From positions 1 through 12,443 of the forward strand of contig JBNKBE010000041.1 of NCBI GenBank assembly GCA_050287085.1: a stretch of 12,443 nt of DNA, written 5' to 3'. Positions 1 to 12,443 of the stretch are shown piece after piece (position 1 is the stretch's first letter; each line of letters begins with the position of its first letter). The position numbers and the translations under genes were made by a program. The notes beneath the pieces are model-generated. The model did not search any database. It had not been told where the DNA came from and saw nothing but the letters and a program-made list of their open reading frames with translations. This DNA is from Polyangiaceae bacterium (GTDB taxonomy: Bacteria; Myxococcota_A; Polyangia; Polyangiales; Polyangiaceae).

Positions 1-16
1 ATTTTCGTTGCTGCAT
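1..16 (-). CDS. Probable start of a gene running off the left edge (MQQRK...)
   Basis: Minus-strand ATG at 16 preceded by GAGGA (26-30) with a 9-nt spacer. Only 5 codons are visible. Confidence 0.45.
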
Positions 17-256
17 TGGTGGATTTCCTCGGCCTGTAGTCCCTTTTGGGGTGTCCACCAAACCGGGGTAACTTCAAGAATTTAGAACTGCGGTGGTCGA
101 CGCTTGCCTTGTAGCGTGACCATGCGCACCTAGCGTAACCCCGCGCCGAAATGCGGTGTCCAACTTGAATGACCCTCGGGGAGTTCGAAACAGTGGCGGC
201 AATGGCCCAGCTCCATTCGACGAAGTTTTTTGGCGCCTTCGACGCCCCGTGCCCAC

Positions 257-1042
257 TCATTCAGTTCGTAGAAGCAGCGCTTGTCCAGTCGGGAGATGGA
301 TGAGCGGAGCCTGGACTTGTGCTACATATTCGTCCACGGCCAGGCGCGCACCTGGACAAGCTTCGGAACCGTAGTCATCACACAAGAGGATGCCCCCGTT
401 GACCAGCCGGGGGTAGAAGAACTGAAGACTTGCGAGTGATGGGGCGTACAAATCCACGTCGACGTGTACGAAACAGAAAGTGCGGTCTGCGACTTCCGCA
501 AATCGTTCTGGAATCCATCCTGGGTAGAGATGAAGTCGCGGCACCGCTGCGAGGTTGTCTCTAACGGTTTCCCACTCTGCCGCCATTTCGCCAGCCTTGA
601 AGCGATGAGTTCGCCTACGGCTGGGGATGTCGACGGCCATTGGCTCGGAGAGCCCCATGAATGAATCGAATCCGTGATGACAACGTCCGTCACGAAGTGT
701 AGCCGTGGCCGTCAGATAGCTCCCAAGCCCCTTCCAGACGCCGCACTCCGCAGTGTCTCCCGGAAGGTGGCGGGTTGCTCGCGCTGAGCTGTACAGCGTG
801 AACGCTCGCGCCTCGACGTCAGTCACGGGTCCTGGAAAACGCTCCAGCAGTGCGTTGAACTCCTCGTCGTGCATCCAGGCGAGATTGCGGTTGTACATTC
901 TCAACCCAGCACGCCTCGCGAGGGCGCTCAACAGGTCATGTCGCGCTTCGTAGCGGTGACGCTGGTTCCCTGCGAAACTGAAGCCAACGTTCTTGAGCAG
1001 GCGCAGCATGCGACGGCCGGTTGCGTCAGAGAATCTAGGCAT
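257..1042 (-). CDS. TylF/MycF/NovP-family SAM-dependent sugar O-methyltransferase (about 261 aa)
   Basis: Motifs ECGVWKG, GFDSFMGL, GWIPERF, FVHVDVDLY and DDYG...CPGARLAVDE. The ATG at 1042 overlaps the GT10 stop (1035-1037) by 8 nt, which supports it as the true start inside the 257..2059 ORF. Confidence 0.88.
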   Translation of the reverse strand: MPRFSDATGRRMLRLLKNVGFSFAGNQRHRYEARHDLLSALARRAGLRMYNRNLAWMHDEEFNALLERFPGPVTDVEARAFTLYSSARATRHLPGDTAECGVWKGLGSYLTATATLRDGRCHHGFDSFMGLSEPMAVDIPSRRRTHRFKAGEMAAEWETVRDNLAAVPRLHLYPGWIPERFAEVADRTFCFVHVDVDLYAPSLASLQFFYPRLVNGGILLCDDYGSEACPGARLAVDEYVAQVQAPLIHLPTGQALLLRTE

Positions 1043-2059
1043 TGGCGCTTGCCGTGGCAGGCTCTGCGAGCGCGAGGGCTCTGCGTGCCCAATGACCCCA
1101 GGTGAAGCGCTCCCCCTGCGGGGAACGGAGGAATCTAACGGCCGCTTCGCGGTACGCGCGCTTCTCTTCGTCACCCATTGAGCGAAGACGCTCGAGCACC
1201 AACGCGGGTGGTAGGGCTTTGCAATCGACGTAACAGTCGTCCGGGACTGTTTCGCCGAGATAGGTGCCACCGCCCCAGTACAAGGGGATGGTTCCACAGA
1301 GTAGAGGCTGGATGAGTTTTTCCGTGATGTCGCCGTCCTGGTCTGTGCTCTCGAAGGCGATTGTAAAGTCGTAGTGCCGTAGCGTTGAGAGCTTGTTCTT
1401 GCTTGCACCCATGAAACGAGGATGGGCGCGCCAGCCGTTTCGGCCTCGGTGTGGCGAAAAAAGCCGTAGACATCAGCCTGCCGCCCAAACGCTTCCGCCC
1501 AATTTCGACGCTGTGCGTTCAGCTCGAGGTCCTCCCGCTCGCAGTACCTGTTGATCAAGCAGACGCTTCCCGATTGTCGAAGGTTGCGGAGGCTTCGGAG
1601 TTGTCGTTCAAGTGCTCGTACGTGCCTTGCGCGCGACCCAGGGATCACGGGATAGAAAAGCCGACGATCGACTGCGGCATTAGAGAACAACATAGAGACC
1701 CGCGTGACTTCCGGGCGAACAAGGTTGTTGAGCGTCTCTTCAGTCAGATTCTGGGGAGGCTCGAGCGAGCAGTAGATGCGCTTTCGGTCGCAGCGTGCAA
1801 ACTCATCGGTACAGTAGTTGAGCGCCACCCACGTGCTCCAAGGCGCCGAAGAGCGAAAACGCGCAGCTCCGTGACTGAAGTGAAGGGGTGAACGATAGTG
1901 GTTTACCGCGTCTGGGATGTTCCGAACTCCGGTCAGCCTTACGCCGTCCTCCTGAGGTGAGCGAGCTGCGGGCAGCAGCGCGAGATTCTGAGTGAGGTCT
2001 CGTGCTCGCGCCCAGCGCAGTTGTTCCCACACAGCCTTTGAAAATTCCGCGGCGGTCAT
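1035..2059 (-). pseudogene. GT10 (alpha-1,3/1,4-fucosyltransferase-like) gene split by a single frameshift; could be a sequence error, a pseudogene or a slippage site
   Basis: The N-terminal part reads from ATG 2059 to ...ADVYGFF. The -1 frame is open below a TGA at 1473-1475 and reads ...NGWRAHPRFMGASKNKLSTLRHYDFTIAFESTDQDGDITEKLIQPLLCGTIPLYWG, the GT10 motif. Adding one base gives 341 aa with coupled overlaps at both ends. Confidence 0.8.
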
Positions 2060-3195
2060 GGATGGTCACCTTGGCACCTGGGACTGAGCAGTTCCAGGTA
2101 GGTCGATTCCAGCTGTTCGGCGGCCTCTAGCCATGACCGCTGTTTCACTTGCTGCCTGGCGGCGGCACCGATGCGATCGCGCTCGAGCTTGGAGAGCTGG
2201 CAGAATGCCTGCAGGCCCTCCACCATCTCTCTTGACGTGGAGCAATCCCAGAGCTTCCCCAATTCTCCCCCGACCAGCAACTCTCGGTGTGCGGGGATGT
2301 CGCTTGCTAAGATGGGCAGTCCGGCACTCATCGCTTCCATGACGGCGATTGGTAGGCCTTCAAACTCCGAGGGCGTCACGAACCCAAACGCATTGGTCAT
2401 CAGAGCCCATTTTTTCGCGCCGTGCACGCTTCCTAGGCAGAGTACATGTCTAGAGTTTCGCCGAACGACCTCCTCGGCGTACTTGTCCTCCGGGCGACCA
2501 GCGCCCACGATCACGAGCTTCAGTTTGAGGTTTGCCCGTTCCCTGACCTGCTCGAAAGCGTCAATGAGCTGCATCGGGCGCTTGTTGGCTTCCAACCGAG
2601 CAACAAAGAGCAAGTATTCACCCGGTTCGACATTCCACTCAGCATCTAGACTTGTGCCCAGTGTGGGTGCCGTACAGACGCCGTTTGGGATCGGAGTCGT
2701 TTGGCAGCCTCGGGCGGCGTAGTGCTCGAAGAGATGCCGGGCGACAACGACCGTGGTGTGCGAAAGATGGAGAGCGCAGCATTCACCCAGTCTGAGCAGG
2801 GCCACGCTGAGGCCACCCCATCTTGCGGCTCGGTAGTCGAAACCGTGAATCGTGCAGACTACTTTACAACTCCCAAGGCGTGCGAGTGGAACCACCAATG
2901 CGGGCCCCATGCAGTGATAGTGGAGAACATCGAAGTCGCCGCGAAGTGCACGGAGGGTGGAGGTGAGCGCATGGACCAGTGCGTCCATACGTCCCGACGT
3001 TCGGCGATGCGAAGTCACGATTTGGACACCATCGACCGAATGGCGCCTCACGTTGTGGGGGGCATACCACCACCGACTGAATACAGTGACGTGATGGCCC
3101 CGATGGGCGAGTTGTCTTGCCAACTCATCAACGTGTTGCTCGACTCCACCCCAAGTTGCAGGGAACCCCTTCTGTCCGATAAAAGCGATTCGCAT
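2056..3195 (-). CDS. GT4 (GT-B) glycosyltransferase
   Basis: MRIAFIGQKGFPATWGGVE start, TIHGFD, IPNGV, FVARLEANK and PSEFEGLPIAVMEAM (E-x7-E), ASDIP. ATG 3195 is preferred over the track's TTG 3240. The stop overlaps the next ATG (ATGA, 2056-2059). Confidence 0.92.
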   Translation of the reverse strand: MRIAFIGQKGFPATWGGVEQHVDELARQLAHRGHHVTVFSRWWYAPHNVRRHSVDGVQIVTSHRRTSGRMDALVHALTSTLRALRGDFDVLHYHCMGPALVVPLARLGSCKVVCTIHGFDYRAARWGGLSVALLRLGECCALHLSHTTVVVARHLFEHYAARGCQTTPIPNGVCTAPTLGTSLDAEWNVEPGEYLLFVARLEANKRPMQLIDAFEQVRERANLKLKLVIVGAGRPEDKYAEEVVRRNSRHVLCLGSVHGAKKWALMTNAFGFVTPSEFEGLPIAVMEAMSAGLPILASDIPAHRELLVGGELGKLWDCSTSREMVEGLQAFCQLSKLERDRIGAAARQQVKQRSWLEAAEQLESTYLELLSPRCQGDHP

Positions 3196-3252
3196 CGTTC
3201 CCGGGGCTGGAGCGTTGCCAGCGTTGGCGTATCGTGACAATAGCCTTGTCGC

Positions 3253-4449
3253 ATGCGTCTGCTCTTGCTAAGCAAGTTTGGGTCGGCTCGCGGCGGGGCA
3301 GAGCGATGCTTCAGGGATCAGGTTCGTTGGTTCAGAGAAACCGGCCATCCGGTGGCGGTGGTCACGCAAACTGGTCCTAGCGAGGAAGATCCACCCGGCA
3401 CGCGCTTCGACGTACGACCGGTCGACTTTCGTTCGACGTTGCGCGAGGGAGTCGTGGGTGTCGAACGCATGTTCTGGTCCTCCGAGGTCGCTCGAGCCGT
3501 GCAACGAGCAGTTGCCACCTTTCGCCCGCACGCGGCGATCGTGCACAACACCTATCACCATCTGGGCCCAGCGATTCCGCGCATGCTCCGTCGACTCAAT
3601 GTTCCGACACTGATGTTCGTACACGACCACAAGCCGGTCTGTCCGGCGTATTCCGCGTGGCGAGCCGGGCGTGTCTGTCGCGAATGCAACGGGAGGCGCT
3701 TCTATCGGGCTGCTTTGCATGCATGCGGTGGTTCGACAGCCCACGGAGTTCTGCTTGCGGCCGAGTCCTACTGGCAGCACTCGATGCTCAGGACCTACGA
3801 CGACATCGAAGAGTATGTCGTGCCAAGCCACTACATGGCTGCTGCTTTGGCCGAAGGCGGTCTGAGGGGGAAAGTGAGCGTTGTTCGCAACGCCGTTGAG
3901 CCGATCTCGGGCGCACCCAATCGCGATGGTTTCGCTGTAGGGTTTTATGGTCGTCTTACCCCCGAAAAGGGTGTGGACACGCTTCTGGATGCAGCAAAGC
4001 TGTTGCCGGAGGCCACGTTTCGCATCGCGGGAGAGGGGCCGGCGAGGTTGAGCCTCCAGGAGCAGACGCGGCGCTTGCAACTCCGCAATGTCGAGTTTGT
4101 TGGCGACCCTGGACCAGATGGGCTGTCCGCAGAGTTTGGAAGGTGGCACGTCTCCGTCGTTCCGTCCGTTTCCCCAGAAAACTGTCCGTACGCCGTCTTG
4201 GACGCGTTCCGGTTTGGTGTCCCAGTAGTGGGAACCGACGACGCTGGCATTCGAGAGCTGGTGAGCGACCGCGGCTTGTTATTTCCACGCGGGGACCATC
4301 GGTCGCTGGCCGCGAGCATTCGTTTGCTCTTACAGGACTCGAGCGTGCATGAGCGGTGCGCGAGGCGCGGCTTGGAATTGGTCGACATGGAATGCCGACC
4401 AGAGACCCACATCAAACGCGTGCTGGAGCTGCTCCAAGCCAGGCTTTGA
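3253..4449 (+). CDS. GT4 (GT-B) glycosyltransferase with a Cys-rich insert
   Basis: GGAER, HDHKPVCP...CREC...C, VVPSHYM, VVRNAV, FYGRLTPEKGV, IAGEGP and PSVSPENCPYAVLDA (E-x7-D variant), GVPVVGT. Confidence 0.92.
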   Translation: MRLLLLSKFGSARGGAERCFRDQVRWFRETGHPVAVVTQTGPSEEDPPGTRFDVRPVDFRSTLREGVVGVERMFWSSEVARAVQRAVATFRPHAAIVHNTYHHLGPAIPRMLRRLNVPTLMFVHDHKPVCPAYSAWRAGRVCRECNGRRFYRAALHACGGSTAHGVLLAAESYWQHSMLRTYDDIEEYVVPSHYMAAALAEGGLRGKVSVVRNAVEPISGAPNRDGFAVGFYGRLTPEKGVDTLLDAAKLLPEATFRIAGEGPARLSLQEQTRRLQLRNVEFVGDPGPDGLSAEFGRWHVSVVPSVSPENCPYAVLDAFRFGVPVVGTDDAGIRELVSDRGLLFPRGDHRSLAASIRLLLQDSSVHERCARRGLELVDMECRPETHIKRVLELLQARL

Positions 4450-5542
4450 CTCGCCCGGCGACTTTGCTCAACACTTCTCGTTCCACTCGCGCGCCTGGCG
4501 GTAAATCCCAGCTACACCTCATGAAGTCAGGGAACCCCGCTAGCCGAGTGGACAATCGCCGTCCCGCGCTCAGGCGTGCGTAGTGGCAGAGGTGTCGCGG
4601 CATCAACCCCAGCAGCTGACTGTACCTGGTTGTACAGACATACTCCAACCGCTCCCCCACACCGACGGCGGTGCTCTGAAGCAGCTCAAGTACGTTGTCC
4701 GGAATTGGCTGCGCTAGGCGAGCGGCGAGATACTCGAGGGCAATCCGTGAGGTCAGGCACAGGCGGTGTCGCTGCGCGATACAGACGAATCGGTCCCAGT
4801 CTATGGAAGAAGCGCGCTCCAAGACGGTGCTAGCGTCGACGAGCCAGCGTACTGGAGACACGTGGGAAAAGGCGACGCCGTGGACGACGGTATGGAAGAG
4901 CTGCTCTGCTGGGGCCAGCACGCGGCTGCGCACGCCTTCGCAATGGGCCTCGAGAGCGGTATCCCAGGCCCAGTCCTCGTCCACACTGCAACTCTGGAGC
5001 AAAGGGCGCCAGTGGAGATCGATCTCGAGCGTACTCCGCTTGAACGGCGAGCTATGACGAACCAAAAGAAGCTGCTCGTCCCATGGGGAGTGAGGCGCGA
5101 AGCCGTTTGCGCACAGCAGTTCGGCGCCCGCCTTCGCCTGATCGGCTCTCACCAAGATGTCGACGTCGCTCATGGGCCTCAGGCCCGGTGTGCTCGCGTA
5201 GTGGCATTCCAGAGCTGCGCCCTTCAATAGCAATGTGGATATGCCAGCCTGTTCGAGTAGCTCTACGACCGCTGCTGCGCTCTTGAGCCGCTGCCGCGTA
5301 TGGACCCAGGCATGTTTTCTGAGTCCCGCAAGCCGCCCATTCTGCGGATAGGTCAGACCTTGTCGTGAGAGGTTGGCGTGGACGGCGGGGAGCAGGCGGT
5401 GACAGCCCGGACCGATGGCGTCCAGCGGGTTTTGGCTTATCCATCCTTCAAAGGCCACGGCCGCGCGCGCGTCCGGTAGGATTGCCGCACGAAGTAGCAG
5501 TAGCTCATCTGCGGTCGGCCACGAGGTTGCGACGGATCTCAT
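4412..5542 (-). CDS. Nucleotidyltransferase family protein (NTP_transf_5-like)
   Basis: LLLKGAAL...Y....LRPMSDVDILV (DxD), EIDLHW and H...HG......RWLVD. ATGA overlap with the upstream GT2; 38-nt convergent overlap with the plus-strand GT4. Confidence 0.88.
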   Translation of the reverse strand: MRSVATSWPTADELLLLRAAILPDARAAVAFEGWISQNPLDAIGPGCHRLLPAVHANLSRQGLTYPQNGRLAGLRKHAWVHTRQRLKSAAAVVELLEQAGISTLLLKGAALECHYASTPGLRPMSDVDILVRADQAKAGAELLCANGFAPHSPWDEQLLLVRHSSPFKRSTLEIDLHWRPLLQSCSVDEDWAWDTALEAHCEGVRSRVLAPAEQLFHTVVHGVAFSHVSPVRWLVDASTVLERASSIDWDRFVCIAQRHRLCLTSRIALEYLAARLAQPIPDNVLELLQSTAVGVGERLEYVCTTRYSQLLGLMPRHLCHYARLSAGRRLSTRLAGFPDFMRCSWDLPPGARVEREVLSKVAGRVKAWLGAAPARV

Positions 5543-6201
5543 CGGGGACCCATTCGCTTGAGTTCAAGACTTCGCTTGGCGACCCGAAAGTAGTCTCCGC
5601 GACGCATCGACTGTAACCGCCCGAGGTTGTTGGCATGGATTCGCCGCTCCAAACACACCTGGTCAATTACCGTCTCTTGCATGCCTAGTTCGCGACAGCG
5701 GACCAGAAAGTCCATGAAGTCTCCCAGATGGAGGGTGGCGTCGAAACGCCCGACGCGTTCAAAACTCGAGCGCCGCATCAGCATCGTTCCGGGGAGGCGC
5801 CCGGGGCGAGGTGGGCCCAGTGTTTGGAAGGTCGGGGTGTCCTGAAACTCTTGTACCCATCCGTAGACGGCGTCGACGTGTGGTGACGCGTCCATCGCGG
5901 CAAGCTGCGCCTCGAGTTTGCCGGGAGTCCAATGATCATCGGCGTCTAGGCCCGCCACGAACTCCCCACGAGCCAAGGCGTAGCCCTCGTTCCGCGCCGC
6001 CGCTGCACCCCGATGGGGTACGCGCACCACCCTGACCGGGAACTTGGCGGCCACTGACCGAGTTCGGTCCGTCGACCCGTCATCTACGACGATGGTCTCG
6101 ATGTTAGGGATCTGCCTCTCGAGGATGCTGACGAGAGCTTCCTCCAAGTACAGCTCTGCGTTGTAGGCAGGAACCACGACGGTGACCAACGGTTGGCTCA
6201 T
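5539..6201 (-). CDS. GT2 (GT-A) single-domain glycosyltransferase, 220 aa
   Basis: LVTVVVPAYNAE, VVDDGSTDRT, AARNEG, LDADDHW and RRIHANN. ATGA overlaps at both ends. Confidence 0.93.
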   Translation of the reverse strand: MSQPLVTVVVPAYNAELYLEEALVSILERQIPNIETIVVDDGSTDRTRSVAAKFPVRVVRVPHRGAAAARNEGYALARGEFVAGLDADDHWTPGKLEAQLAAMDASPHVDAVYGWVQEFQDTPTFQTLGPPRPGRLPGTMLMRRSSFERVGRFDATLHLGDFMDFLVRCRELGMQETVIDQVCLERRIHANNLGRLQSMRRGDYFRVAKRSLELKRMGPR

Positions 6202-6866
6202 GTCGCCCGCCTCCGCTGCAACGAACGGTGCAGTGCGTCAAACATGCCGAGCTCAGCGACGCTTTTGCCTTTGGTCATGTTTTCTTCGTGCAGGCGATAC
6301 TGCAGAAAGACTGCTGGGTGGCGTCGCAGCTTGGCGCCCCGCTGTCGCAGTCGAGCGATGAAGTCGAGATCTTCGCTGCTTGCGAGCTGCTCGTCGAAGT
6401 AACCGTCTTGTTCAACGACGCCGCGTCGGAAAACGAAAGAACCCAGGTTGACCCGATAGTGAGGTGTCACGAGATGAGGTTGAATGTGACCGGGACCGGC
6501 TAGCGCAAGACGAACGCGTCCTTGCACGATCTCGAGCGCCTGGTCCTGCTCCAACTCCGAGCAAGCGTGCCGAAGTGCCTCTGGTTCCCAAAGGTCGTCA
6601 ACATCGAGAAAGGCGATTCCTTCGCCAGTGGCGGCGTTCAATCCCGTGTTTCTTGCCGATGCTGGTCCGCGCCGAGGCTGGTGTAACAGGCTCACTTCCA
6701 GCATTGGATACCGCGGCAGTTGCTCAATCGCGGCGGAAGTCCCGTCGGTACTTCCGTCATCCACGAAGATGAGCTGTCGAACTTGGGCTTGGGACCGCAC
6801 CGTCGATACGCACGAATCTATGAAACGCGCCCCATTGTGGACTGGAACGATCACGGATAACCTCAT
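6198..6866 (-). CDS. GT2 (GT-A) single-domain glycosyltransferase, 222 aa
   Basis: MRLSVIVPVHNG, VDDGSTDGT, ARNTGL, FLDVDDLW, FDEQLASSEDLDF and YRLHEEN. ATG 6866 overlaps the kinase TGA (ATGA). Confidence 0.93.
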   Translation of the reverse strand: MRLSVIVPVHNGARFIDSCVSTVRSQAQVRQLIFVDDGSTDGTSAAIEQLPRYPMLEVSLLHQPRRGPASARNTGLNAATGEGIAFLDVDDLWEPEALRHACSELEQDQALEIVQGRVRLALAGPGHIQPHLVTPHYRVNLGSFVFRRGVVEQDGYFDEQLASSEDLDFIARLRQRGAKLRRHPAVFLQYRLHEENMTKGKSVAELGMFDALHRSLQRRRAT

Positions 6867-7921
6867 CGCGCCCCGCCTACGAGCGACTCCAGCAGCTCGC
6901 AAAGGACGGCCGCGCTGCCTGGCGCGTTGACCGTGTAACATCGGGTGTGTCGGACGAGTTGCGCGCAGAAGCTGAAACTCGACGCGCCGAGGCCGGACGT
7001 CTGAAAAATCGAGCTGGGCGCGAGCGCGCGAAGAAGCATGGCTTTGCTACAGGGGCTGACGCCCGCCGTGCCTTCGATTCGGGTGGGCAGGACGAGCCCG
7101 ACCACTGGTGCGCAACGGGCCGATCCAGCCACACTCGGGAATCTGAGGATGACCTTGTTGTCCTGCGGGCGCGGAGGCTCTTGGGCTAGCGCTGTGAGGT
7201 CTGGGAGGAAGCGTCGCAAGTGATTCAGTTCGAGCTTGGCGGTGTTGTAAACGCCCCAGACCACGGGCGGCTTCCCGGGTGGCAACTGCACGATGCAATT
7301 GTCGTCACCGAGGAATTGAAGCGATCCTGCTGCACTCAGCGCAGCGCTGCTCTTGCCACTGCCCCCGGCGCCGACCAACAGCACGGCGCCTCGCGGGCCA
7401 GCGACCGCTCCGACGTGTAACGATTCAGCGCTCCACTCTCGGACGGCCCACGCGATTAACGTTCGCAGCGGGGCCGCCCGCTCGTAGTTGGGCAGCGTCT
7501 CCAACGAACGAGCCCAATAGTGGCCCGAGCGCTTTGTACTGTCGTATGCCGACAAGGTGTGGGCGTCCAGGTTGTACGCGGTGCTATAGCGGTCCTCATT
7601 GAAGCCGCGAATTTCCCCGCGGGGACCGATGTCGCTGCTGGACCAGGGTGAATGCATGTCGCCTAGCGGCGCGCGGTTTCCCCAAACGAAAATGTTGGCG
7701 TCCGGCGCTGCTGCAGAAGCACGCTCGATCGACCAAAAGGAAGACGTCAACAGCTCGGCAATTGACGCGTCTGCGAAGGTCAGTCGTATCCGGCGTTTGC
7801 AAATGACCAGGTCGGCTTGGTGCGCTGCGCTGTGGAGCTGCTGCTGCCTCGACGCTTCCAAGTCAGCGAAGAAGCGGGGACAGTCCGGCCGACATGGGAT
7901 CGCGTCCGCGACAGAGGCCAT
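6863..7921 (-). CDS. HPr kinase-related (HprK-like) P-loop serine kinase, about 352 aa
   Basis: LHVGAV (His motif), Walker A GAGGSGKS and FLGDDNC (Asp pair) appear in HprK order. ATG 7921 lies 7 nt past the PqqD stop; the track's 8020 start would overlap PqqD by about 90 nt. Confidence 0.85.
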   Translation of the reverse strand: MASVADAIPCRPDCPRFFADLEASRQQQLHSAAHQADLVICKRRIRLTFADASIAELLTSSFWSIERASAAAPDANIFVWGNRAPLGDMHSPWSSSDIGPRGEIRGFNEDRYSTAYNLDAHTLSAYDSTKRSGHYWARSLETLPNYERAAPLRTLIAWAVREWSAESLHVGAVAGPRGAVLLVGAGGSGKSSAALSAAGSLQFLGDDNCIVQLPPGKPPVVWGVYNTAKLELNHLRRFLPDLTALAQEPPRPQDNKVILRFPSVAGSARCAPVVGLVLPTRIEGTAGVSPCSKAMLLRALAPSSIFQTSGLGASSFSFCAQLVRHTRCYTVNAPGSAAVLCELLESLVGGAR

Positions 7922-7928
7922 GGACAGC

Positions 7929-8402
7929 CTACTCTGTTGAAGCGGCCGGTCGCTGGTGGGGCCACCCTCGGTCGTCCACGTCGTGGACGGGATCCAAAGC
8001 GAGGTAGTCTTGCATGTCATCTAACGTCTCGAGGATCGGAGGTGCGAAGTCCGACTCGGGCCCCACTGACACTGCGTCCTCCTCTGGGGTGCCTTCCCAA
8101 CACGTGATGAGCTCTTGTTCCAACAGCGAATGGATGAACGCTTGGATGTCACTCGTTGCGTCCGGGACGAACGCCGCGCAGATTCGTTCGACGCTGAGCC
8201 CGCGATCCAGCCACTCCCAGATTTGCACCCCACAGCCCTGAACCCCGTGGTAGCGCCCCGTCGCAAAGTTGATGATGACAAGCTCGCCGTCGATCAGCTG
8301 CTCCGACACCTGCGGTCTGGCGATCCGGAATTGACCGTCAAGACGCCTTTGTCGACCGACATCCGAGTTGCATGCTCGATCTTCTGAGACCTCGACCATC
8401 AC
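7929..8402 (-). CDS. PqqD-family / RiPP recognition element (RRE) protein with acidic linker and C-terminal peptide tail
   Basis: Residues about 25-100 fit the RRE pattern: VSEQLIDGELVIINFATGRYHGV (three strands), GVQIWEWL, SVERICAAF and DIQAFIHSLLEQELI (three helices). The tail is FAPPILETLDDMQDYLALDPVHDVDDRGWP.... The start is GTG 8402 or ATG 8399 and is uncertain. Confidence 0.85.
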   Translation of the reverse strand: MMVEVSEDRACNSDVGRQRRLDGQFRIARPQVSEQLIDGELVIINFATGRYHGVQGCGVQIWEWLDRGLSVERICAAFVPDATSDIQAFIHSLLEQELITCWEGTPEEDAVSVGPESDFAPPILETLDDMQDYLALDPVHDVDDRGWPHQRPAASTE

Positions 8403-8467
8403 GCGAGGGATCTACTGCAATCGCTTTCAAAATGCACCCGGGTCATTTGATTAGTCGCCGTCAGCGG

Positions 8468-8497
8468 GCCCCCGACCGGGGAGACCCCGTCGAAGGC
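8468..8497 (-). promoter_or_regulatory. GC-rich hairpin in the divergent intergenic region, upstream of the pqqD-like gene
   Basis: The minus strand reads GCCUUCGAC-GGGG UCU CCCC-G-GUCGGGGGC: 13 bp including two G-U pairs and one bulge. Function is unknown. Confidence 0.35.
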
Positions 8498-8681
8498 ATT
8501 GACCCAAACCAGGTGACTAGAATGTGACGAGTGCTGGTTGTCCTACGGACGAGCTGGGAACAACTGGCGGTTGCAGCGCCTAGGAAAAGGTGGTTGGGTC
8601 TCGACGGTGAATCACGTTCAAGGAGCGTCTAGTCTGCAGCTCGCCGACGCACGCCCGTTTTCGGTGGGCTAGCCACAGCGG

Positions 8682-11069
8682 ATGAAGCGTCGGGGGTGTT
8701 CATCGTCCAGTCATCGAGGCGCGGTGTTGCTTCTCGTGGCGGTGTCCAGCTTGGGGCTTCTGGCGCGCACCGTAGGGGTTTGGCGGGTCGTATTCGACGG
8801 CGACGTCGTGCGGCTGCTGGGCGCCGACTCGTACTATCACTTGCGCCAGGCCCTGTTCTGTGTGCGGCATTTCCCCGAAGTCCAACGTTTTGATACCGGG
8901 ACAAACTTTCCGCTTGGTGAAAACAACCACACTGCAGGGCTCTACGATTGGTTCAGCGGTTTCGTTGCGTTGACGCTCGGTGCTCGCGGTGCCCCGGATG
9001 AAGCGATCGTGCCGTGGGTGCTGTCACTCTCTGGCCCCATATTTGCCATGCTGGCTTTCGCTGGTCTGCTCCTGCTGGCAAACCGGGTTTTCGGGTATCG
9101 CTCTTCCGTTTGCACGAGCCTGCTTCTCGTTGCCTATCCCGGCGAGTTTCTGGAAAAATCTAGTCTTGGGTTCGCAGATCACCATGTGCTCGAAGTCTGT
9201 TGCGTGGTGTGGGGCCTGCAGGCTTGGACGAGGCTTTCACGCCGAACGGGGGCAACGGGAGCCTGGCGTCCTGCTGTGTTGGCAGCACTCCCTTGGTGGC
9301 TGCTCGCGTTGAGTTGGAATGGAGCGCCGCTCTATCTTGCAATCTTGCTGGGATCGGTGGGCGCCTCAGCCGTTTGGCGCGCGGACGCGGACGCGGACGC
9401 GGACGCGGCAGCGCGAAGGGCATTGCTGGCAAGTGCTAGTCTCGCCCTCGGCCTTGGGACCCTCCTACTGCTCCCCGGTGCCGTGCCGTGGGTTGAAACC
9501 CATTGCTTCTCCGTCCTCATCTCACTGGGATTAGCCCTTTGGGTTTTGACGTGGCCGCGCCTCGCCCCGCTGCTGCCGCGCAGCTCCTTTGCTCGATGGT
9601 CCTTGATGGGCGGTCTTGGCGGCGCTGCGTTGCTAGGCCTGTCCTACTCAGCCCCCGAAGCGTTCGCCCTCGCTTTTTTGCCCAAGACAGCGCTGGTGGC
9701 TGAACAAGCGAGCCCCACTTTACTCGAAATTTGGGGACTGCTCGGACCTTCCCCGGTGCTGGCGCTGTGGGCGTTTGCGGGCTCCTTGGCGGCAAATCCC
9801 AACCGGCACGCAGAGGCCCGGGTGTTCGTGTGTGTGTTCGCACTTGCGGTCGTGCTGCTTTGGGTCGTCACGGGGGACTATGGGTATCTTGCCGCGGTAT
9901 TGGTCGCGCTCCTTGGGGGCAAGGGGCTGAGCTCGATCGTTGCTGCCGTGAGCCAACGCGCTCCACGTCTTGCGCCGATTCGCAACCAAGCGCTGGCCTT
10001 GCCGGTGATGTTGGGTGCGTTCGCGCCCCTTGTAGAGCCATGTTTCCTAGATCCCGCTGCGGCGAAAGCCATGCTGATGGTGGACGACGCGTGGGCCCAG
10101 GCCCTGCGCTGGGTCGAGAGCAACAACCCTGGGCCGAACCTGGACACGCTCAGCGAAGCGAAACCCGGTGCCGATTTCGACTATTCCGCGGGACCGCCTG
10201 GGATCCTGAGCATGTGGGACTACGGCAACGCGGTCGCCGCTCTTGCGCGCCGGCCTGTGGTGGCGAGCCAAAGGACATCGTGGCTCGCCTCGGATGTGTT
10301 CCTCGCCACGTCGTCCGCGGAAGCGTTGCGATTGCTGGCCCACCGCGCCAGCCCTGGGGAGTCGGTGAGTCACGTAATAGTGGACTCGCGGACGATGACC
10401 ACCGGATTCGTCGGCCTCCTGGGAATCGCGCATCGGAGCTCAAATGAGTTCGTCTCGATCTCGCAAGACGGGCGACCCCGCTTCGATGAGCGCTTCCACC
10501 GCACACTTGGAGCACTGCTACTGGAGCGCGGGGGATCGACGGTGGGCAGGTTTCGTTTGGTCTACGACTCGCCCCAGCAAGACTATGTCTTTCAACGGGG
10601 GTATCGATCCCAATCCGGAGAACTTCTTGTCCAGCTGTCGCGCGCGGCTGCTGGTTCACCCGGCCAGAACGTTAGCTTTTCGGAGGCCCTCGCGGCTGTG
10701 GGAGTCGAGCACAACCCGGCGACCTACGACGAGTTACTGGTACCGAGGGTCCGAGTTTTCGAGGTCGTCCCCGGCGCCGTTTTGGTGGGTCAAACCTCGC
10801 CAAAGGCGATCGTTCACGCCATTGTGGGGGTGCGCGGGCAGGGGCTGCCACGGCGTGCGATTGGGTATTCGGCTGACGCCGACGACACAGGGGCGTTCAG
10901 AATCCAGGTCGCGCAGGCGACGGGCACAACAACAAGCGATACTGTCCGTACCGATTCGTACTACCAGATCTTCGTGCAAACCGCCTCTGGCAATACGCCA
11001 TGGATGCGCGTGCGGGTTCCGTTGAGCGCCGTTCTCGAGGGGCGCGAGCTGTCACTCGCTTCGCCCTGA
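8682..11069 (+). CDS. STT3-family oligosaccharyltransferase, archaeal AglB-like
   Basis: GADSYYHLR, FDTGTNFPLG, GFADHHVLE, many hydrophobic helices, LVAE (TIXE-like), SMWDYGN (WWDYG-like), FRLVYDS and VRVFEVVPGA, followed by a beta-rich C-terminal domain as in long AglBs. Confidence 0.88.
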   Translation: MKRRGCSSSSHRGAVLLLVAVSSLGLLARTVGVWRVVFDGDVVRLLGADSYYHLRQALFCVRHFPEVQRFDTGTNFPLGENNHTAGLYDWFSGFVALTLGARGAPDEAIVPWVLSLSGPIFAMLAFAGLLLLANRVFGYRSSVCTSLLLVAYPGEFLEKSSLGFADHHVLEVCCVVWGLQAWTRLSRRTGATGAWRPAVLAALPWWLLALSWNGAPLYLAILLGSVGASAVWRADADADADAAARRALLASASLALGLGTLLLLPGAVPWVETHCFSVLISLGLALWVLTWPRLAPLLPRSSFARWSLMGGLGGAALLGLSYSAPEAFALAFLPKTALVAEQASPTLLEIWGLLGPSPVLALWAFAGSLAANPNRHAEARVFVCVFALAVVLLWVVTGDYGYLAAVLVALLGGKGLSSIVAAVSQRAPRLAPIRNQALALPVMLGAFAPLVEPCFLDPAAAKAMLMVDDAWAQALRWVESNNPGPNLDTLSEAKPGADFDYSAGPPGILSMWDYGNAVAALARRPVVASQRTSWLASDVFLATSSAEALRLLAHRASPGESVSHVIVDSRTMTTGFVGLLGIAHRSSNEFVSISQDGRPRFDERFHRTLGALLLERGGSTVGRFRLVYDSPQQDYVFQRGYRSQSGELLVQLSRAAAGSPGQNVSFSEALAAVGVEHNPATYDELLVPRVRVFEVVPGAVLVGQTSPKAIVHAIVGVRGQGLPRRAIGYSADADDTGAFRIQVAQATGTTTSDTVRTDSYYQIFVQTASGNTPWMRVRVPLSAVLEGRELSLASP
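9381..9408 (+). repeat. In-frame hexamer microsatellite (GCGGAC)x4 plus GCGG, encoding ADADADADA
   Basis: Read directly from the sequence; lies between two hydrophobic segments of the STT3 protein. Confidence 0.9.
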
Positions 11070-11110
11070 GGCGAACGAGACTTGGTGGCAGGCCTGCTGA
11101 GCTCCAAGGT

Positions 11111-12443
11111 CTACAGCGCCGTGTTGACGGGTAGACCGAGATAGGTGCAGCCGGGCGTGAGCCGCAACGCCTGGCGCGGGTTGGGCAAATCGGTCCGATT
11201 GGCGATCCATGAAAACCAGAGTTCTCCGTGGGACTCGCTCAGTTCCCCAAAATCGGTCGACGAAAATTCGTCCACCGGTGGTGCGTCCAAGAATAGCGAC
11301 GCGGGCTCGAACGCCGATCCGTCAAAAGTCATGACCTTGGCACCGAAGGGGTAAAGCAATCCAAGATGCAACTCCCCGTCCTCTGTCATGAGGAGTTGCC
11401 GCCCCGTGGCGACCGGGCTCGTGCCGTCATGGAGGATGTCAAACTCTGGGATGACCTCCGTTATTTCGCCCTCGGCGGAGACATGCGCCAGGGTTTGAAA
11501 GGGGCCGCCAAGAAAGCTTGCGCGCTGACGGTCCTCGAGGACCCAGACCCCGCCGTCATCGTCTACGGCTGCCGTCGACGCCAAAATGGGGAATTCATCG
11601 TCATCGATGGTCAGGCTCAGGAATCCGTCTTCCGGTACCCATGCGAGTGGAGCCCCGTCTGTATCGTGGCCGGTGAGCAGTGTCGCGTTGACCGCAGTCG
11701 TGATCCCGCTTCGCGGATTCGTGGAGATCGAGTACCCCAGGGGTCCTCCTAGGCCCGCTTCGCCGAAGTAGGTCATGCGTTGGAGCAACTCCCCATCGGT
11801 GCTCACGCGCATGCTGAATACGCCTTCGTCGTATGCATGCAGGGCAAAGGCCTCGCCGTCCCACTGCACGTCGGTGAGCACGGCAGTTGCCGGTACGACG
11901 CCGGGGTAGACCGCCACCTCGATCGCCGCTTCGGGATCATCGACGTCGCCGACGAGTGCGGCAATGGGGACCGTTCGCGCTTCCTCGTCGAACCACGAGT
12001 AGGCGATGATGAATCGCCCGTCAGGAGAAATGGCCGCCCCCTCCACGCGTTGATCTGCTGCGTCGACGTGTGCAGGGAAGACGTCGAGCTCTCGTTCCAC
12101 CATTTCACCAGTCTCTAGGGAGAACGTCTGGATCAGCGGGTACAGCCGGTGCCAAGAGGTCCGGGATGAGCCTTCGGGAATGGGGAGCACGTACGCGACC
12201 GCGGAGACCAGATGTAGGGAGTCTCTGCTGCGCATCGTCCCCCCCGGCACCCGGCTGAACGCCAACCAGCTTCGGCGTGGGTCCCCGTTTTTGGGGGGCG
12301 GCGCTGCAAATCGAGCGCAGTCGCCGTCCAGCATGGCGGTCGGATACGAGGCGTCCGTTGCGTCATCGTCCGTTGCGTCATCGTCCGTTGCGTCATCGTC
12401 CGTTGCGTCATCGTCCGTTGCGTCATCGTCCGTTGCGTCATCG
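11111..12443 (-). CDS. Hypothetical acidic, beta-rich (possibly propeller-like) protein with Asp/Thr-rich N-terminal linker; 5' end outside the window; probably exported
   Basis: The 11111..12334 frame stays open to the window edge and reads (DDATD)x6-ASYPTA-MLDGDC.... Blade-like segments include AAISPDGRFIIAY, DVQWDGEAFAL and VDDDGGVWV. Confidence 0.75.
   Translation of the reverse strand, partial: DDATDDDATDDDATDDDATDDDATDDDATDASYPTAMLDGDCARFAAPPPKNGDPRRSWLAFSRVPGGTMRSRDSLHLVSAVAYVLPIPEGSSRTSWHRLYPLIQTFSLETGEMVERELDVFPAHVDAADQRVEGAAISPDGRFIIAYSWFDEEARTVPIAALVGDVDDPEAAIEVAVYPGVVPATAVLTDVQWDGEAFALHAYDEGVFSMRVSTDGELLQRMTYFGEAGLGGPLGYSISTNPRSGITTAVNATLLTGHDTDGAPLAWVPEDGFLSLTIDDDEFPILASTAAVDDDGGVWVLEDRQRASFLGGPFQTLAHVSAEGEITEVIPEFDILHDGTSPVATGRQLLMTEDGELHLGLLYPFGAKVMTFDGSAFEPASLFLDAPPVDEFSSTDFGELSESHGELWFSWIANRTDLPNPRQALRLTPGCTYLGLPVNTAL
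12352..12443. repeat. Perfect 15-bp tandem repeat CGTCCGTTGCGTCAT, at least 6 copies, running off the edge
   Basis: Six identical units span 12352-12441, followed by CG. They encode DDATD on the minus strand in frame with the 11111 gene. Confidence 0.95.

Follow-up and report, generated by a model that had tools for sequence, protein, structure and literature searches.

The leader peptides of lasso and linear polyphosphorylated peptide (LPP) precursors are described as carrying an FxxPxL-type motif that binds the RRE, the recognition element for peptides that are made by ribosomes and altered after translation (RiPPs) (PMC13381572). In LppA, the RRE-binding Tyr is reported at position -16 and the phosphorylated Ser at position +3, a spacing of 18 (PMC13381572), and in BsfA the spacing from Y-17 to phospho-S3 is 19 (PMC10368454). 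In pseudomycoidin, PsmN is reported to be needed for the hexose on the phosphate (PMC6993621). Here, we describe a five-gene operon in a stretch of DNA of 12,443 nucleotides (the window) from a Polyangiaceae bacterium (assembly GCA_050287085.1, contig JBNKBE010000041.1, positions 1 to 12,443), in which the RRE protein itself carries a leader- and core-like peptide as its C-terminal tail. The operon is a real, widespread and uncharacterised variant of a known tailoring module, and the chemistry given below is proposed, not demonstrated.

An operon whose RRE protein carries a peptide tail

Five coupled open reading frames (ORFs) run on the minus strand from 8402 to 4412 in the order RRE, kinase, two family 2 glycosyltransferases (GT2a and GT2b) and NTP_transf_5 nucleotidyltransferase (NTase). 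The RRE gene (8402-7929) and the kinase gene (7921-6863) are separated by a 7-nt gap, and the remaining three junctions are ATGA overlaps. The ORF positions confirm the gene order and spacing given in an earlier sequence-only reading of the window. The features of the operon, with the evidence that included AlphaFold2 (AF2) models, are as follows.

7929..8402, minus strand: RRE protein of the PqqD family, 157 amino acids (aa), with a leader/core-like tail fused to it (Pfam PqqD, AF2, Foldseek, alignment)
8097..8333, minus strand: RRE domain, residues 24-102; predicted to dock on the kinase through its strands at residues 30-53
8019..8048, minus strand: leader-like motif in cis, F119-x-x-P122-x-L124, with a strand at 123-126 (alignment; strand predicted by AF2)
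7959..8018, minus strand: core-like segment D129-P148 (DMQDYLALDPVHDVDDRGWP), near-invariant, with Asp137 (7992-7994) as the candidate acceptor
6863..7921, minus strand: kinase with the HprK/phosphoenolpyruvate carboxykinase (PEPCK) fold, 352 aa (motif residues, 97-row family profile, AF2 model)
6198..6866, minus strand: GT2a, short soluble GT2 of the cassette-associated group, 222 aa (Pfam Glycos_transf_2; identity comparison)
5539..6201, minus strand: GT2b, short soluble GT2, 220 aa (Pfam Glycos_transf_2; identity comparison)
4412..5542, minus strand: NTP_transf_5 nucleotidyltransferase, 376 aa (Pfam 117 bits; motifs intact)

A Pfam search over the operon matched PqqD once, Glycos_transf_2 twice and NTP_transf_5 at 117 bits, and left the kinase unmatched. 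These matches agree with the domains that had been named from the letters alone, and the kinase fold was secured through a family profile matching HprK and a model matching PEPCK. Hydrophobic 19-mers were found in none of the five cassette proteins.

The PqqD match is confined to residues 40-99 of the RRE protein (33 bits; cut-off 23.4), and the first ~20 residues are an N-terminal extension absent from its relatives. The AF2 model has a predicted local distance difference test score (pLDDT) of 83. Its best Foldseek match is the lasso RRE TbiB1, and the closest Protein Data Bank (PDB) matches, TbiB1, PbaB1, LppB and TfuB1, place it with the lasso B1/PqqD-type RREs, which recognize YxxPxL, here with FxxPxL in cis. 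The ORF extends ~55 residues beyond the domain, through a variable linker, the FxxPxL motif and the segment D129-P148. Residues 119-148 are leader-plus-core-like, and the consensus after the FxxPxL strand is DMQDxLxLDP(I/V)HxVDxxGWP. No lasso cyclase, B2 protein or free precursor gene was found within the window or across its 22.9-kb contig. The sequence-only reading, which had noted no cyclase, peptidase or precursor in the window, was right about the cyclase, B2 and a free-standing gene. It overlooked that the RRE C terminus is itself a precursor-like peptide, the central feature of the system.

The tail is highly conserved. In the leader-like motif (n=306), P is present in 98%, F/Y in 95% and L in 89% of sequences, and the spacing from the leader aromatic residue to Asp137 is 18 in 299 of the 306. 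Among 129 of 151 proteins, those of 120-185 aa, D137, P138, G146 and P148 are invariant, and D129, H140, W147 and P122 are at 99%. The tail has no conserved Ser/Thr, and past position 128 there is no conserved hydroxyl residue. The chain continues beyond GWP for 3 to 77 residues. The C-terminal residue is not conserved, being Ser in 22/287, and the C-terminal Ser rule of lasso kinases, on which the sequence-only reading had drawn, is inapplicable here. In the AF2 model, a strand forms at residues 123-126, as expected of a cis-bound leader, so the leader-like strand probably sits in the groove of its own RRE. Residues 131-150 are modeled at a pLDDT of about 61.

Several candidates for the acceptor were set aside. 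A C-terminal Ser was rejected on the lack of conservation of the last residue. Thr at position 128 was rejected as a general acceptor, since this position is Asp in the window protein and S/T in just 12 of 22 tails from the kinase-led search described below. His140 was weakened by a DPP variant of the tail (L275 5506-5934, minus strand; P0004, P0006, P0026 and P0029), which lacks His140 and GWP and retains Asp-Pro. The only DPP-variant locus seen, L275, is rich in GT4 (family 4 glycosyltransferase) genes. Several divergent members have lost FxxP and retain D-x7-D-P. Some proteins contain two or three RREs in tandem (P0008, P0015, P0021; P0003, P0025, P0014, P0110), each RRE with its own cis leader-like strand, and three of these proteins are fused to a kinase. 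In the tandem proteins an FxxP strand follows each repeat, and the complete motif occurs once. A free-standing tail gene was also sought. Six short matches proved to be RRE fragments starting in the last helix or the linker, and no split form was found. In the ESM Atlas, the whole RRE protein retrieved PqqD-like clusters only, and the tail alone retrieved nothing usable.

Conservation of the cassette and recovery of the tail

A two-sequence profile of the RRE protein matched 3074 clusters (50% identity) at an E value of 1e-10 or better, and the best 150 of the 3074 were inspected. We analyzed 160 loci, 58 of which have at least 3 kb upstream and at least 6 kb downstream (two duplicate pairs among them). 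In 47 of these 58 loci, genes for the kinase, GT2 and NTP_transf_5 are all found around the RRE gene, so the cassette that had been read as an operon in one genome is conserved as a unit. Singly, the kinase is present in 54, GT2 in 56 and the NTase in 48 (a few being lower-scoring paralogues). In 77 of 115 loci, the RRE gene is directly followed by a gene for the kinase, either alone or fused to GT2; kinase-GT2 fusions occur in 9 of the 58, and three proteins are RRE-RRE-RRE-kinase fusions. An MsbA-type exporter is encoded in 26 of the 58 loci, and the sugar-gene neighbors are GT4 (21 loci), epimerase (15), SDR (10) and GlcNAc-2-epimerase-like (10). The best 80 of at least 485 genome loci cover 19 named phyla, with 7 loci unlabelled. 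Since a close kinase was found in 1 of 200 other genomes of the host phylum, the cassette is patchy. For five RRE loci with no adjoining kinase gene, the kinase lies elsewhere in four of the genomes, in two of them in kinase-GT2-NTase blocks with no near RRE. In two Anaerolineae genomes (L041 and L046), the tailed RRE gene leads a region of ATP-binding cassette (ABC) importer and nonribosomal peptide synthetase genes, and the kinase-GT2-NTase block is elsewhere.

The profile and locus searches included the tail in the query, and tail-blind repeats were therefore run. A search with the RRE domain only returned 19 other proteins, and the tail was present in all 19. A kinase-led search covered five phylum samples of 201, 201, 301, 301 and 401 genomes, with 5-11 candidates scored per genome, and yielded 65 non-seed kinase loci (nine seed loci were excluded from the counts). 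Among kinases scoring at least 160 bits (n=27), an RRE was found within 1.5 kb in 22, and 20 of the 22 were tailed. Of the other two, one was tailed after the locus was widened (L275, the DPP variant), and one was interrupted by the contig end. Three of the five family kinases with no near RRE had one at greater distance. In 19 RREs from the kinase-led search, the core-like segment was the most conserved part (0.85 bits), compared with 1.89 for the leader-like strand and 2.0 for the RRE domain. A match on a Tistrella plasmid turned out to be tail-less RREs. B2 was beside none of the 27 family kinases and beside 16 of the 38 distant kinases; the tail was found with two of the distant kinases, and B2 and tail together with none. 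The tethered peptide thus takes the place of the free precursor and its peptidase.

Lasso and peptidase genes were sought around the cassette. Asn synthase occurs in 1 of the 58 loci, where it is of the glutamine-amidotransferase type, and none lies on contig C41, so no lasso cyclase accompanies the cassette. Pfam B2 overlaps two cassette loci, once at ~10 kb and once inside a separate PqqD-B2-kinase-NTase unit, so B2 is not part of the cassette either. A home-made B2 profile (15 sequences) overlooked the weak B2 of this genome on contig C4, which makes its absences soft, and the Pfam searches back the absence of B2. A scan of 76 cluster representatives and a second scan of 73 further neighbors (83 in all, 10 of them already covered) showed no recurring peptidase; a single M50 was seen, on the opposite strand. 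The SipW-like/LppS model (TIGR02228) had no match in this genome and matched 13 of 44 genomes, none overlapping a cassette locus. Judged by eye, the 69 loose YxxP matches among 2276 included no small ORF that recurred over unrelated loci.

The whole-genome search placed a separate lasso-like set on other contigs. The cassette has no cognate B2, cyclase or free precursor, in line with what the sequence-only reading had noted for the window. Contig C4 (about 223.5-232.2 kb) has a tail-less PqqD, a weak B2 (the only B2 match of the genome), an HprK-like kinase and a second NTase. The C4 kinase gene lies between an FG-GAP gene and tsf/rpsB, and the NTase gene lies in a Wzc/Wzy locus. The bsf cluster is described with an FG-GAP gene and a tsf/rpsB placement like that of the C4 kinase (PMC10368454). 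Contig C12 (about 25.9-27.8 kb; L012 5889-7752) has an Asn-synthase-like gene (38.5 bits vs a cyclase cut-off of 300) followed by a classical YxxP (YSKP-type) precursor ORF. Taken together, the C4 and C12 genes resemble a lasso system that is split and has an adaptor of its own. The set is distant from the operon, and its kinase resembles the operon kinase in the P-loop region only.

The other genes of the window were also annotated. The 3' end of the NTP_transf_5 gene overlaps a convergent GT4 gene. A scan for promoters and terminators gave no signal exceeding that of shuffled sequences. Divergent from the operon, at 8682-11069 on the plus strand, is an STT3/AglB-type oligosaccharyltransferase gene (TIGR04154 221 bits, under the cut-off of 450) with the motifs DSYYH, DHH and MWDYG, the last a variant of WWDxG. 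It was rejected as a member of the cassette because it is present in none of the 160 related loci, and it is a local neighbor. A 600-aa ORF at 257-2059 (minus), together with 1035-1412 (minus), is apparently a frameshifted GT10 fucosyltransferase-like gene whose C-terminal domain is in the other frame, and the same 600-aa ORF appears to read on into a TylF methyltransferase. Among sequence data sets, none from RNA was listed as containing this DNA; the one DNA contig that does, which may be its source, showed identical letters, also at the frameshifted ORF. A protein of DDAT pentapeptide repeats (11111-12443, minus) reaches an assembly gap. The contig of the window also encodes a 2153-aa secreted-type protein (L011 1937-8398, plus) with vWA, HYR, RTX calcium-binding repeats and CBM60.

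Kinase, predicted complex and proposed mechanism

The kinase had zero Pfam matches and matched NCBIfam TIGR04352 below the cut-off only. Its family profile (97 rows) matched a solved HprK with an E value of 3.5e-6, in an alignment covering the His, Walker A and Asp-Asp motif, and its AF2 model (pLDDT 90) resembles the two-domain PEPCK (TM 0.57). A PDB search with the single sequence gave no matches. The catalytic residues H169, G187, G189, K190, S191, D206 and D207 are intact. Across the 97 rows, H169, G187, G189, K190 and D206 are invariant and S191 and D207 are conserved at 90% or more, so that the family has the His, Walker A GxxGxGKS and Asp-Asp signature; K256 is also invariant. Hpr_kinase_C of canonical HPr kinases was not matched by the window protein, and the relatives scored 22-27 bits vs a cut-off of 33.3. 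No NCBIfam model scored above its cut-off for a typical RRE-tail protein or a typical kinase. In a quick tree, the midpoint separated all 56 tail-linked kinases from all 16 B2-linked kinases (SH-aLRT 92); this tree has long branches, two odd rows within the tail side and no bootstrap, and BsfK is not included. GT2a and GT2b share 31% identity, and GT2a shares 43-47% identity with the five best cassette GT2s. The NTP_transf_5 motifs KG, R122, D126-x-D128 and DLHW are intact.

A complex of the kinase, ATP, Mg and the RRE protein was modeled with a score of 0.86, and the best of three controls scored 0.36. Of 157 solved pairs, 116 attained this mark, as did 2 of 215 mismatched pairs, a calibration that is approximate for a job with custom alignments and ligands. 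The runs had at least 64% of contacts in common, and the partner pLDDT was at least 74. The confident contacts pair the RRE strands (residues 30-53) with kinase helices 292-324; the top 25 contact pairs are RRE-strand pairs exclusively. Tail residues L127, D129, M130, Y133 and L134 are also among the confident contacts, as are kinase residues 100-101 and P-loop residues 185-186. The model supports docking of the RRE on the kinase with the tail predicted to reach the P-loop.

We infer the modification of the tail, the modified residue, the order of steps and the product as follows. The single chain would be both RRE and substrate, with the leader groove of the RRE occupied in cis by its FxxPxL strand. 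Docking would bring the RRE sheet onto the C-terminal helices of the kinase, and the short helix D129-L134 would guide the invariant segment into its cleft. Phosphorylation of this segment by the kinase, likeliest at the carboxylate of Asp137, would then give an acyl phosphate. The nucleotidyltransferase may cap the phosphate or link a sugar to it, in the manner of PsmN on pseudomycoidin, and the GT2s would then lengthen the sugar. Because no conserved peptidase was found, the protein is probably uncut and could be a cytoplasmic scaffold or primer of a small glycan; roughly half of the loci encode an MsbA-type exporter to which it would be passed.

We give about an even chance to the RRE protein being such a self-presenting, uncut scaffold that is phosphorylated and glycosylated, since the kinase, GT2 and NTase co-occur, fusions exist, tail-blind searches recover the tail and the complex scores 0.86. 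The assignment of Asp137 as the acceptor is only tentative. It is favored because Asp137 is the only conserved nucleophile at register 18 and because Asp-Pro persists where His140 is lost. A wider proposal, which we consider doubtful, is that the HprK/PEPCK-fold kinase forms an aspartyl acyl phosphate on the never-cleaved tail, that NTP_transf_5 and the GT2s build a sugar chain there, and that the RRE protein would be a recyclable soluble carrier replacing a lipid carrier in a widespread protein-primed glycan pathway. Phospho-glycosylation, as suggested in the sequence-only reading, is still the simplest account of the module, and among the options raised there the protein-borne carrier is best favored by the evidence.

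Several observations weigh against the scaffold reading. Residues D137-P148 have no confident placement in the complex, and their AF2 pLDDT is about 61. The register match could be due to chance, as it is based on two systems with a difference of one residue between them. Near-invariance over 20 residues suits a binding surface equally as well as a substrate. Acyl phosphates are labile. In the available accounts, the characterised kinases LppK, BsfK, PadeK and PsmK use Ser/Thr hydroxyls only, and LppK is reported to refuse even Thr (PMC13381572). Two genomes place the RRE gene at a locus separate from the kinase-GT2-NTase block, and some members have degenerate NTase motifs (D126 is retained in 50/64 and D128 in 55/64). 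The window has no cassette-type ABC exporter; an ABC gene 11.5 kb off on its contig scored 293 bits vs 579-857 for 28 of 29 cassette members.

The absence of a hydroxyl acceptor in the tail and its extreme invariance would also be expected if the RRE-tail were an unmodified activator, assembly factor or pseudosubstrate, an outcome we do not expect but would not find surprising. Asp137 would then imitate the phosphoserine of an ancestral precursor and lock the kinase, perhaps with the NTase and GT2s, in a complex whose enzymes act on a small molecule to give a nucleoside diphosphate-activated sugar or polyol for a surface glycan. An activated small molecule as the product had also been raised in the sequence-only reading as an alternative and still has a fair chance. 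The kinase model resembles the whole of PEPCK, a small-molecule kinase, the neighbors handle sugars (GT4, epimerase, SDR and GlcNAc-2-epimerase-like), and fosfazinomycin is described as a precedent in which a nucleotidyltransferase uses a kinase-activated small molecule (PMC13622209). The three RRE-kinase fusions speak on both sides: the kinase-proximal RRE retains the D-L helix and has lost Asp-Pro, but the first RRE still bears one complete tail. The predicted tail contacts at the P-loop argue for a substrate, as does the reported action of RRE, HprK-like kinase and the same NTase family on peptides in LPP, Bsf and pseudomycoidin.

In the remaining alternatives, the product or the substrate would be a separate peptide. 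The system could make a true RiPP, if a housekeeping protease freed the modified tail and the resulting short linear phospho-glycopeptide were exported. This would suit the leader-like YxxP-type motif, the LPP-like gene set and the MsbA-type exporter in 26 of 58 loci, and housekeeping proteolysis has been proposed for fosfazinomycin (PMC13622209). It is unlikely, however, as no peptidase recurs in the scanned neighbors, SipW-like genes overlap no cassette locus and were not found in this genome, and the length beyond GWP ranges from 3 to 77; furthermore, the core is invariant over phyla, while LPP cores are reported to vary widely (PMC13381572). Alternatively, the tail could be an autoinhibitory plug, displaced by a free precursor or surface protein that is encoded elsewhere and modified in trans. 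A classical lasso precursor does occur on C12, large secreted proteins are numerous in this genome, and the divergent STT3-type gene adjoins the operon. Even so, we regard a substrate in trans as very unlikely. On C4, the lasso set comes with a tail-less RRE, a B2, a kinase and an NTase of its own, and B2 had no match in 26 of 43 genomes that bear the cassette (several incomplete). No small YxxP ORF recurs over unrelated loci, STT3 is in 0/160 other loci, and a plug leaves the invariance well past the leader strand unexplained.

Comparison with described systems

In the literature searched, with most subscription papers and large supplementary data sets outside the search, no account of an RRE bearing the fused tail was found. 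The family is large, includes cultured cyanobacteria, such as Oscillatoria sp. PCC 10802 and Crinalium (plasmid pCRI9333.04), and has no curated model. Substrate and adaptor in one small soluble protein would make a convenient in vitro test of the roles of NTP_transf_5 enzymes such as PsmN and LppN, and of the reason for RRE-kinase-NTase modules in polysaccharide loci. If the acceptor is Asp, or if the RRE is a reusable carrier, the chemistry would be new to this group of kinases, and a pseudosubstrate, if true, would mean that a RiPP module was converted into an enzyme subunit.

The LPP clusters of Bacillota (LppA/K/B/S/D/N) are described with a discrete-type RRE, an HprK-like kinase and an uncharacterised NTP transferase together, often with an MsbA-like exporter, in polysaccharide loci with no cyclase, and their precursor has a YxxP-type motif, 18 positions downstream of which lies the key residue (PMC13381572). 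The cassette resembles this, with an MsbA-type exporter in 26 of 58 loci. However, the LPP precursor is a free gene product (YxxPxVLxHQxIxFETxxS) with Ser3 as the acceptor, whereas the cassette peptide is fused to the RRE, has Asp at position 19 and does not have FET at positions 14-16 (PMC13381572). The LPP clusters also have the SipW-like peptidase LppS and variable cores, in contrast to the invariant core of the cassette, which has no such peptidase, and the cassette includes dedicated GT2s in its conserved unit and occurs in many non-Bacillota phyla (PMC13381572).

The Bsf lasso cluster of Bradymonas (BsfA/B1/B2/C/K/N) has an RRE-stimulated kinase with an H-G-G-G-K-S-D-D motif and an acceptor near the leader-core junction (PMC10368454), which the kinase motif and the candidate acceptor of the cassette resemble. 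The residues H148-G163-G166-G168-K169-S170-D186-D187 of BsfK are spaced like H169...D207 of the cassette kinase, which is one residue shorter before the Asp pair (PMC10368454). The cassette differs in having no B2, cyclase or free precursor, and the acceptor Ser3 of BsfA is 19 residues from Tyr (PMC10368454). The family kinases stand apart from the sampled B2-linked kinases in the tree; BsfK itself is outside it. Pseudomycoidin and paeninodin tailoring (PsmK/PsmN and PadeK) similarly combines a kinase and an NTP transferase with a DxD motif, but PsmK and PadeK are reported to require a C-terminal Ser that is absent in the cassette, which has no lasso machinery and encodes GT2s in its unit (PMC6993621, PMC8498205). 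Fosfazinomycin FzmZ/T/U (PMC13622209) and the pearlins (PMC9016710) are described as using a peptide as a carrier rather than a product, with other enzymes and a free scaffold peptide. In fused borosin precursors, the substrate is likewise tethered to a biosynthetic protein, although the core is fused to the enzyme and not to an RRE (PMC8429565). With no SipW-like peptidase, free precursor or Ser, the cassette falls outside the LPP clusters, and with no B2 and no cyclase it falls outside the lasso clusters, yet it would function like the tailoring module of LPP, Bsf and pseudomycoidin.

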